Shown here in pieces: positions 21,901 through 24,900 of a stretch of DNA of 64,000 bases. Every line of letters starts with the position of its first letter. Positions within the stretch are counted from its first letter, which is position 1. Under the pieces are notes generated by a model. The model was not told the DNA's origin. It ran no database searches and saw only the letters and a list, made by a program, of their open reading frames with translations. A program made the position numbers and the translations under genes. This stretch comes from Chara braunii (lineage: Eukaryota; Plantae; Charophyceae), in NCBI GenBank assembly GCA_003427395.1, contig BFEA01000004.1, positions 4,637,773-4,701,772 of the forward strand, written 5' to 3'.

Positions 21901-24900
21901 TAAGGGAACGGTACAATAGGAGTGAAGGAAGGGCTGGCAACAACTACTGTTAGCTGTTGGCCACGGCATACTACGGCTAGCTACTGCGAATAGTGGCTGC
22001 TATCTATTGGTTGGGCCCGGACGCCGCTTCTCCTAGACTGCGGACTATGTTTTCAGTAGGGGTGAGGGACTGGTGAAGGACGAGGCTGCTGCGTACTGCA
22101 GCTGTTGCTAACTGCACGGAGTTGTTGCGTATTGTTTGTTGCTGCTGCGGACTGCGCAACGGCTACTGGCTGTTACGACAGACTGTACACGGGCTGGTGT
22201 CGTAGACTGTGCGTTGTTGCCGCCCTTGGCTGTCCACAGGCCACGACTGACTGGTGGAGGTCGTCTTCGGCTGACACCTGCTGTTGACTACTGTTAACTG
22301 TTGCGGCTGCGACGCTGCGGTGGATGGGCGCAGGGAAGTGGCCGGGCTAGAAGGAGGGGGTTATTGTTGCGAGTTGGGAAGTCGTCAGGAGAGTTGAGTT
22401 TAATAGTTTGACTTTGGACTGATCAAGTTGTACTCTTGGCCATCATTGTGGGGCCCTCAGGCACTGAAGACTTCAAGGCCCTCTCACGCGAGTCTGAGTG
22501 CACCCCTCTTGTATCTGAGAGACTAAAACCTCTTCTTCTACCCTTCTTACTCTCAGTCTAGTCCATTGGTCCGGAGAAGAAGGCGGCACGCGGGATTGCA
22601 ACCCGTAATCCGCGCCAAGGCCTCCGTGGGAGGTTCGCCCCACCGATTGCGGGAGCTCTGCCGGAACTCAGGAGGAGTTCTAAAGGCAGGGAACTCAGAG
22701 GTAGCCCTTGCATTCCCTTATAAACTCAGTGTAACCCCTACCTATAAATCCTCCCTATGTATTGGTTGACTGTATTGTATACAACCCTTACTTTGACTTC
22801 GGGATTGACTTTCAAGACTCAAATCAGGCTAAGTAAAGGAATGCATGTATGATGGCAGTTTCAGTTTCCTTGATTGTCTGAAAGCAAATTGTCACAGGGG
22901 GTTGCATCAAGGGAAAGGCTGGGAGGAAGACAGTTTTGCTTGCGATTGAACGGGTCTTATAGGGTCAGACATTTTTTCTAAAATGAATGGCCTGACTGCT
23001 GTGTTTTGTTCTGTTTTCTGAAGGACCGAGCATTGTTTCTAAGGCGAATGGCTTGTTCGATGTGTTTCTTTAGTTGTGTCAGACATTGTTTCTAAGATGA
23101 ATGACCTGGCTGCTTTGTTTTTGAGGGGTATTGGTTGCTTGACTTCTGAGGACCAGACATTATTTCTAAGACGAATGGTCTGGTCACTGTTTACTTGGGT
23201 GGTTTCCAGACAGTCTCTGGGTTAGACCTAGGGTGCTCTGCTTTTTTGTGTGTGCTGAAAACAGGAGAGCCGAGTATTGTTTCTAAGACGAATGGCTTAA
23301 CTCTCTTTGGTTGTTTTATTTTGAGGGAGGGTTCAGGCCAAAGGACTAGACATTGTTTCTAAGACGAATTGTCTAAGTCTTAGGCCACAGGACTATAATG
23401 AGAACAAAGGAATATGATTCTTTATAATGTTATATATATGTACCTATATGTGAACAAGGCCAGTCAGGCATTGTTTCTAAGACGAATGACCTGACTATAG
23501 CCTTATCACAAGCGAAGGGAGTATAATCAAGAGTTATAACTGAAGGTAAGTTGGGCAGGCTGAGCCTTGTTTCTAAGACGAATGACCCAGCCCTACGCCT
23601 TCCTTAAGGTGCAGAAAGATATATATAACTTGGCTATTTAAACAGTTTAGGGCGACTAAGCATGGTTTCTAAGATGAATGACTTAGTCATATACCCAATG
23701 AAGAGAAAAGTAGTTGTGCAACCTGTTCGTGTATACCTAAGGCAGAGGGTTGACATTGTTTCTAAGACGAATGACCAGTCCCAATGCCCTATGTAAGCAG
23801 GGTGTAAAGGGTTAAATCATTGAAGGGCTATTAACTATTGTTTGCTAAGTTTGACTTGGGGATGACGAGAGCACTTACCTTTGTGGTTTGGCATTGCATG
23901 TGGATGAGTGAGGCTACTACTTGGTCTGAGTTGCAGTTTGACAGGTAGTTGTTATAGTTGCTCGCCACGTGCAAGAGCGATAAGAGTTAGGTCGATTCCT
24001 GCATTTTTTTAGCTAAGTTTTTTTACTTAGATCAATTCTCGCATTTTATGAGATCTTTTGTTATACTTGGCTTTGTATAAATTTTGGTAAGCTATTTTTT
24101 CTACGGGAAGCGCTGCCGAAATTTCTTCAAATCCAAGGAGTTAGTTACAATTTTGACTTGTCAAAGTTCGACTTGTCTAAAGTTTATGTATGACTTAGTA
24201 AAAATCTGGAAAGTCTCCTTTTCTAAAAGGAGTGCTGCCCAAATTTTTGCTAAATCAGGGAGTTAGACAAAATTGGACTTTGAAAAGTGAAAGACTATTT
24301 TTGGTTTCATATTTGGGCTGATATAAATTCTGAAAAGACACTTTTTCTACGGGAAGCGCTGCCGAAATTTTCTTGATTTAGGGGAGATAGATTATATTTT
24401 GACAGGTGGTGATTCTGGCAATCCACCCTGTATAGGGGAGATTGTGTCAGGGTCTACCTTTGCTTTGGACACTGTTTAAAGGTAGATTCAGGCTTAGTCA
24501 ATTAGGATGATTGAGTGAGATCGTGAGATGGAGTTGTATTCTCCATGGACTTATAGGTTTAGCCTGGGGATTGACCTGTCTTGTATTACAGGTCCTCTTG
24601 ATCGTATTGATTAAGGATTTGGACTAGGTTCACCTTGATCCTACAAGGATCACCTTCTGTTATCACTGATAACAGGTCGGTTGCCGATTCGTCGGTTTAC
24701 GATTCAACTCCAATTCACTCCTGCCACTCAACCTAAAGACTTTAGCCATGTGATTGAACTGTTTTGTTGTGTTTTCACCCGGACTTTATTGAATGGTCAT
24801 CCAACAAAAATACTGAGTATTTATTTAGGAGTTGCACGAGTGAGGCTTGTATGGCTAAAGCGAGGGGTATGAGTGCAAAAAATGGTTGAAGTTGACCCCG

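Follow-up and report, generated by a model that had tools for sequence, protein, structure and literature searches.

A repeated AAG-loop hairpin array behind a likely splice donor in the giant LTRs of a pol-less Chara braunii retrotransposon

The 64,000-nt stretch of Chara braunii DNA analysed here (contig BFEA01000004.1, positions 4,637,773 to 4,701,772 of the forward strand; hereafter the window) carries a retrotransposon whose 7-kb long terminal repeats (LTRs) each contain an array of ten short, irregularly spaced hairpins. Comparison of the units within and between LTRs indicates that the array is real and that its units have likely been under selection. We lean towards the reading that these units, which number 7–10 per LTR, constitute a multivalent docking array. 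The docking protein, most likely Gag, would thereby single out full-length, unspliced RNA to be packaged or exported. An initial annotation had listed a multivalent protein-binding scaffold serving packaging or export among several possible roles, and we retain it as the best reading.

The ten near-invariant 20-mers with periods of 53–118 bp reported in the initial annotation were all recovered on the plus strand at 22970-23773, two of them exact, six with one mismatch, one with two and one with three, and no match was obtained in 100 shuffled sequences. Their cores start at 22970, 23031, 23084, 23158, 23275, 23351, 23469, 23565, 23661 and 23754 (periods of 61, 53, 74, 117, 76, 118, 96, 96 and 93 bp), and the complete array spans 22962..23782 of the 5' LTR (plus strand), with units made up of a 7-bp basal stem, an asymmetric inner part and a YAAGNY loop at core positions 10-15. 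It lies ~270 nt behind a likely splice donor at 22701 and 2.4 kb upstream of the primer-binding site (PBS). The 3' LTR harbors a second ten-unit array (37495..38324, plus strand; 20-mers at 37503-38315), and a diverged solo LTR contains a seven-unit array on the minus strand (49134..49753; 20-mers at 49143-49745) in which loop positions 5-6 differ. A position weight matrix scan and a covariance model built from the units detected no further significant units in the window. The five stem examples quoted in the annotation are all present in the sequence. No Rfam family matched at gathering score in the window, and none (IRE, TAR, hammerhead, CTE, snoRNA and others) gave a covariance-model match over the array at E<=5, the best score in the homologous LTR described below being E 4.7. 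A literature search, mostly without subscription papers, supplements and the Chara genome paper, likewise gave no account of such an array in an LTR, in agreement with the view that this is not a described LTR feature.

Pairing in the basal stem provides the first line of evidence for a structured unit. Six pairing registers were tried, and the 7-bp stem with one unpaired 3' purine, as initially described, was the only one to pair well, with 87–89% of cells paired in this register versus 19–48% in slid controls. The 70 basal cells of the 5' LTR comprise 53 Watson-Crick pairs, 7 G-U, 7 A-C and 3 other combinations. Column shuffles within the same LTR yielded 33.7 Watson-Crick pairs, and those within the 3' LTR 33.2, compared to an observed 52/70; none of 20,000 shuffles reached the observed count in either LTR. 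The solo LTR behaved similarly (34/49 versus 25.6, p=0.003). Across 28 aligned units, 51-52 cells had changed on both sides, compared to ~22 in shuffles (0/500 reaching the observed value); these units are related by descent, and the shuffle test was therefore repeated within single LTRs as given above. The excess of pairing over shuffles supports the claim of a repeated stem-loop with maintained pairing, as opposed to a simple satellite.

These data bear directly on the possibility that the array is a by-product, in which a hairpin-prone unit was duplicated and homogenised, and ordinary cytosine decay generated the paired transitions with no present function. The majority of basal double changes are indeed transitions, the two LTRs have diverged to a similar extent in basal stems (11/150) and spacers (31/449), and a comparison of orthologous units between two subfamilies (13 double, 20 single and 16 unchanged pairs, with 10 of the 13 double changes leading from one Watson-Crick pair to another) was not significant (p=0.15). 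Similar stem and spacer rates, however, are expected under any model, because both LTRs of one insertion diverge neutrally afterwards, and independent decay is precisely what the column shuffles model; since within-LTR pairing exceeds the shuffles in all three LTRs, independent cytosine decay is excluded. Double transversions among the loop-closing pairs and a loop AAG that outlasts complete stem replacement, both detailed below, further speak against a by-product, which we regard as quite unlikely. The annotation had also read many of the mismatches as G-U on the LTR-sense strand, which was not borne out in this copy, where G-U and A-C are balanced (7:7 in the 5' LTR and 6:5 in the 3' LTR). 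A bias is seen only in the solo LTR (9:2) and in the divergent, type-B units of the homologous LTR (19:3), which pooled amount to 28:5 (p=7e-5 against 1:1 and 0.024 against base composition).

Collection scans for homologous loci returned seven loci, six of which were dropped as single motif matches without LTR similarity beyond the motif. The remaining one, L002, is a public-contig fragment of a homologous LTR, 73–82% identical over the longer aligned parts, and carries ten hairpins and a remnant with a deleted loop at the array position. One of these hairpins is of the window type, one retains the window architecture with a changed core, and eight (type B) have stems of 13-15 bp that are wholly different and almost uninterrupted; the homology of these eight to the window units is based on their position, flanks and loop. 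All ten present a six-base loop, UAAG(U/A)U. An unconstrained fold of L002 returned eight hexaloop hairpins (z -7.5 on the sense versus -3.6 on the antisense strand), and at least 11 of 13 pairs were formed at 8 of the 9 loop sites tested, compared to 3 of 615 other positions. The remnant (~22-45, minus strand) corresponds to window unit 9 minus the entire apical part, with the basal arms joined, in what amounts to a precise deletion of the hairpin top.

Anchoring 37 hairpins on the loop revealed a 3-bp apical stem in which the closing pair is C-G in 26, A-U in 6, G-C in 3, U-G in 1 and unpaired in 1 (36/37 paired), the second pair is U-A in 33, C-G in 3 and A-U in 1 (37/37 paired), and the third is U-A in 28, C-G in 8 and unpaired in 1 (36/37 paired). 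Double transversions are found among the apical loop-closing pairs. Within the loop, positions 2-3 read AA in all 37 hairpins and position 4 is G in 35, and the variable core positions 14 and 15 of the window units fall inside this hexaloop. The conserved unit is therefore likely, as judged from these alignments, to be a stem presenting a YAAGNY (AAG) hexaloop closed by a 3-bp apical stem, and not the pairing of CATT with AATG around a 12-nt loop that had been put forward. The latter displays no covariation and is broken in one homologous L002 unit, and the homologues support the 3-bp apical stem and 6-nt loop; the window units alone do not discriminate between the two folds, given that the CATT:AATG and TTC:GAA columns are both nearly invariant. 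Three further candidates were discarded. A triloop is often the lowest-energy fold, but 6 of 28 units fail to form one of its pairs, and it is also disrupted in 6 of 7 units from the solo LTR. In kink-turns, the tandem G-A pairs set the register of the lower stem; for a kink-turn of the C/D or U4 type, the register needed is unpaired here, where only the one-purine-bulge register is paired. The NXF1-binding CTE motif AAGACA does not correspond to the L002 loops, which read AAGUU.

The divergence of L002 is also informative as to whether the array acts as DNA. The units might form a cis-regulatory cluster of enhancer- or insulator-like nature, its inverted repeats being kept complementary by template switching during reverse transcription and not by selection on RNA. 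This would fit a 20-mer core that is near-identical within a subfamily and the lack of strand preference, in folding or in G-U content, of the two LTRs of the window, and repeated palindromic motifs are known from the LTR cis-region of Sireviruses (PMC4728375, PMC2829016). It is harder to reconcile with L002, which has only ~5-6 bases in common with the window units and wholly different stems that are nonetheless paired, with the 28:5 G-U bias, or with the location of the array downstream of a transcribed exon, whereas the Sirevirus motifs lie upstream of the TATA box. We consider a DNA-level role unlikely.

The spacers of the 5' LTR range from 16 to 81 nt, far from a near-uniform length, and are of low complexity, the first five being U-rich. 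The annotation called them non-repeated, and comparison of paralogous spacers (z mostly <3, highest 3.9) agrees that no single monomer underlies them; they are collinear with their orthologues in other LTRs: spacers 7, 8 and 9 reach z 5.0, 10.4 and 21.4 against the solo LTR, and spacer 7 reaches z 16.6 against L002. Cores are homogenised within a subfamily, and basal stems and spacers keep their positional identity. No cas family was identified among 178 open reading frames (ORFs) scanned against Pfam, which were drawn from 371 stretches without a stop and at least 70 aa long, in line with the initial report of no cas-like gene. The array shares with CRISPR arrays its short, near-identical repeats and non-repeated spacers, but differs in that its spacers are unequal, its pairing reaches into variable flanks and it resides in a eukaryotic LTR; because subfamilies have inherited the spacers vertically and in the same order, and the ORFs scanned include no cas gene, the CRISPR-like interpretation has to be given up.

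The same observations apply to the related proposal of a processing signal that frees spacer-containing small RNAs, which in a eukaryotic form would have the hairpins recognised by RNase III or a Dicer-like enzyme and the intron cut into small RNAs. Type-B stems of 13-15 bp with a fixed loop would suit such an enzyme, likely-sense reads are few over the array, as if it were excised or cut, and Sirevirus palindromes are small interfering RNA hotspots able to form hairpins (PMC4728375). Against this, the spacers are unequal, low-complexity and orthologous between LTR subfamilies, window-type stems are short and interrupted, no cas family was identified among the scanned ORFs, and read ends do not pile up in the listed data, a pattern for which poly(A) libraries are, however, poorly suited. 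The annotation's processing signal is accordingly not retained, and we deem processing in any form very unlikely.

Poly(A) reads from three oligo-dT runs (X5, X6 and X7) delineate the transcript on which the array would lie. Likely-sense reads, so designated from the usual protocol with the first mate minus, cover ~22434-22701, matching a conserved ATG-free segment that is likely the first exon (22440..22700, plus strand; start approximate, from conservation and depth). Immediately behind it lies a likely 5' splice donor GT (22701..22702, plus strand), reading G/GTA in all four LTR copies compared. Likely-sense depth falls across 22701 from 49 to 1.1 in X5, from 109 to 1.7 in X7 and from 157 to 8.3 in X6 (~20- to 60-fold), and in X5 and X7 remains at 0-8 throughout the remainder of the LTR. 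Opposite-strand depth in X6 rises again to 41-217 in downstream conserved parts, so the fall is not due to mapping loss alone. Reads with loose ends behind 22695 (13 and 26 reads) have five letters in common as far as 22700, beyond which agreement is ~0.5, a pattern that splicing to several acceptors would produce. A 3' splice acceptor is predicted at 25145..25169 (plus strand; pyrimidine tract and TAG), and is also present in the solo LTR. The 3.7-kb leader contains 61 ATGs, none of which is in the exon, and is U-rich behind the donor; a consensus fold of the exon showed a double change in 1 of 74 pairs (four sequences only). Taken together, the array likely sits in a first intron and would be present only on unspliced RNA. 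The initial annotation had overlooked its position just downstream of a conserved, apparently used donor.

Proximity to a donor raises the possibility that the loops are decoy 5' splice sites, which would bind U1 small nuclear ribonucleoprotein or helpers without being cut and would damp the donor or suppress early polyadenylation so that unspliced RNA survives, in parallel to the negative regulator of splicing of Rous sarcoma virus. The loop, Y-A-A-G-(U/A/C), matches positions +2 to +6 of the donor consensus GUAAGU, with U at +6 in 8 of 10 L002 loops and a preceding G, completing the hexamer, in 3 of 10; the array also starts 270 nt behind the donor, and its first five spacers are U-rich. Most window units, on the other hand, match at four bases only, the +1 G is missing in 34 of all 37 hairpins, pairing with U1 leaves the conserved final pyrimidine unexplained, and the poly(A) reads indicate that the donor is apparently used efficiently. 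We find this explanation doubtful.

Under the protein-docking reading, transcription would start near 22440 and splicing at 22701 would strip the array from spliced RNAs, so that genomic RNA alone keeps it. A protein, most likely Gag, would read the exposed AAG loop, many hairpin copies would raise avidity, and higher avidity would help an element without pol to compete for the particles of a helper. Homogenisation of the copies within each subfamily would allow the upper stem to change in concert. A more specific version, which we put forward tentatively as a possibility, casts the array as an RNA barcode in the LTR intron: 7–10 AAG-loop hairpins carried by unspliced RNA only, with upper stems rewritten in concert per subfamily, through which pol-less lineages might tune their claim on a helper Gag or on their own antisense gag-derived protein.

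Several observations weigh against protein docking on an intronic array. In terms of structure, the pairing probability of the hexaloop form is below 0.1 in 10 of 13 window units tested, so that it is not thermodynamically favoured, and the triloop and/or the CATT:AATG fold is usually of lowest energy; the window-type hairpin may be soft or switching. The window array folds equally well on both strands (z -4.4 sense versus -4.5 antisense), its G-U:A-C ratios are balanced and the orthologous-unit comparison is not significant, as described above. A covariance model of the window units misses the type-B units of L002, its best score (E 0.68) going to a type-A-like unit, and all type-B evidence stems from one contig. 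The RNA data derive from one study, with 6–13% of each run read, and their strand assignment follows protocol convention. Because the mapped reads are mostly 80–95% identical and come from other copies of the family, they report on the family and not on this locus. Another 15 and 30 reads run on with GT past 22700, and may be unspliced; no read joint from the donor at 22701 was listed within the LTR, including to the predicted acceptor at 25169, and two motifs from loose ends further downstream are absent from the window. The gag-like ORF of this copy is antisense, broken and devoid of a CCHC knuckle. Finally, known packaging signals of LTR elements are usually located near or behind the PBS, far from the position of this array.

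The element hosting the array has the direct terminal repeats with TG..CA ends, PBS and target duplication of an LTR retrotransposon, in agreement with the initial placement of the array inside a giant LTR. Its LTRs form a 7-kb direct repeat of 93.5% identity, consisting of the 5' LTR (18960..26159, plus strand; 7.2 kb), with the target duplication CCGG in front, and the 3' LTR (31932..40701, plus strand), with CCGG behind. A related LTR in inverted orientation breaks up the latter at 32104-33682, where there is also an assembly gap; this nested insertion has an imperfect duplication. The solo LTR, from a related subfamily (46731..53397, minus strand), is flanked by GCGG and is 71–80% identical to the element LTRs over aligned parts. 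Target duplications are thus 4 bp long and GC-only (18956-18959/40702-40705 and 46727-46730/53398-53401). Behind the 5' LTR lies a TGG-type PBS (26162..26173, plus strand), with a putative match to tRNA-Asp; ARAGORN found no tRNA gene. No polypurine tract precedes the 3' LTR, the 26 bases before 31932 (31906-31931) not being a purine run. This copy has been decaying since insertion, as shown by 230 differences between its LTRs over 3841 aligned sites. Downstream of the array, the LTR leader contains a two-copy, 95-bp internal repeat (24063-24157 and 24309-24403; 74% identical) that is found in other LTRs too. Hundreds of poly(A) reads with loose ends on both sides map to 19820-19862 (mainly on the opposite strand), 19990-20046 and the related 63287-63361; these likely come from another abundant repeat family with the same motifs.

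The upstream, likely U3, part of the 5' LTR contains a U6 small nuclear RNA-like sequence (20132..20239, plus strand), with a second copy in the 3' LTR (34686-34793, plus strand). These score E 7e-7 and 3e-6, at ~38 bits versus an Rfam gathering threshold of 44, and feature an altered ACAGAGA box, a terminal T-run and a B-box-like motif ~90 nt upstream. The same LTR part of the solo LTR is occupied by degenerate large-subunit rRNA-like pieces (52001-52559, minus strand, and 52130-52192, plus strand; E 0.005 and 0.003). Between subfamilies, the middle of the upstream LTR half is wholly different, and DNA contigs cover it at low summed depth, as might suit a cargo region for captured host RNAs. 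The U6-like sequences recall the small-RNA-derived LTRs of Cassandra, Helenus and Ajax, which derive instead from tRNA or 5S (PMC10886601).

The internal region contains a broken ORF (27800..30118, minus strand) that runs antisense to the PBS and LTR transcript, an unusual arrangement for a gag-derived gene, and combines a gag-capsid-like N-terminal part, a basic segment and an RG-rich tail. All 21 of its homologues are annotated Chara braunii proteins. The N-terminal part resembles the capsid domain of retrotransposons, which we treat as no more than a lead (Atlas score 0.87), and the ORF is taken as a gag-like remnant of apparent Ty3 type. Only 1 of 23 proteins compared has a CCHC zinc knuckle, a Pfam scan of the gag-like piece gave no match, a PDB profile search with it returned a low-complexity match only, and a single-sequence structure model (pLDDT 42.7) was left unused. 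No pol domain was found between the LTRs. Protease, reverse transcriptase, RNase H and integrase remnants at 41.2-45.4 kb lie outside the LTR pair and seemingly stem from an older element that was the target of the array-bearing insertion. Elsewhere on the plus strand, pieces at 6124-6783, 13376-14578, 59561-59887 and 61683-62246 comprise two DUF659 transposase-like sequences, a zf-RVT LINE remnant and a ribosomal protein S19-like sequence. A bacterial promoter and terminator scan, irrelevant here, gave chance-level results.

If the barcode version is right, a retrotransposon of the plant lineage would possess, as some viruses do, a packaging signal in many copies, here linked to splicing. The array could also account for the rise to abundance of a pol-less element with 7-kb LTRs. 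With its repeated hairpin, a loop invariant at three letters, stems of two natural types and a location behind a donor, it offers a small, directly mutable candidate signal.

Among plant elements, the non-autonomous LARD and TR-GAG elements and the Retand/Grande elements, which have antisense ORFs (PMC11963269), resemble this one in features such as very long LTRs, a PBS, lack of pol and an antisense internal ORF. Its broken antisense ORF, with annotated Chara homologues, does not fit the non-coding internal domain of a LARD. The antisense ORFs of Retand encode TRP28, whereas the Chara ORF is gag-like, and the array is distinct from the Retand tandem array (PMC11963269). Sirevirus LTRs carry multi-copy symmetric motifs that are hairpin-capable and family-variable (PMC4728375, PMC2829016), but those are CGG-CCG palindromes in the CpG-rich U3 of Ty1/copia elements, upstream of the TATA box. 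The Chara core lacks palindromic symmetry, is AT-rich and keeps its loop fixed, and it belongs to a pol-less element; its column counts contain no CGG-CCG palindrome and the array is downstream of an exon with likely-sense reads, and a Sirevirus-type motif cluster was rejected.

Further parallels come from protein-read RNA structures. Elements that mediate export of unspliced RNA include RRE/RxRE (PMC9142903) and the IAP RTE and MusD MTE (PMC12786077), and the zinc knuckles of Gag, which bind the Psi signal, contact exposed loop guanosines (PMC7599994). As proposed here for the Chara array, Psi, RRE, RxRE, RTE and MTE are structured RNAs present only on unspliced transcripts (PMC7599994, PMC9142903, PMC12786077), but for the most part each is one complex fold lying outside the LTR or close to the PBS, in contrast to small hairpins that stand apart from one another in a linear array. 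One of these reviews notes a lack of studies that directly address how RNA of LTR elements is exported in plants. In RNA viruses, the alphavirus packaging signal consists of eight GGG-tipped hairpins (PMC5869531) and coronaviruses display repeated hairpins with a hexanucleotide motif, UUYCGU in SL5a-c (PMC8206606). The Chara array has in common with these signals several hairpins with a fixed loop motif and differing stems, the conserved loop on variable stems that typifies hairpin packaging signals, and it would likewise lie on a genome-length RNA. It differs from them in its 7–10 copies, lodged in the non-coding LTR leader of a retrotransposon and apparently intronic. If our reading is right, the Chara array would work in the manner of these repeated viral packaging hairpins.

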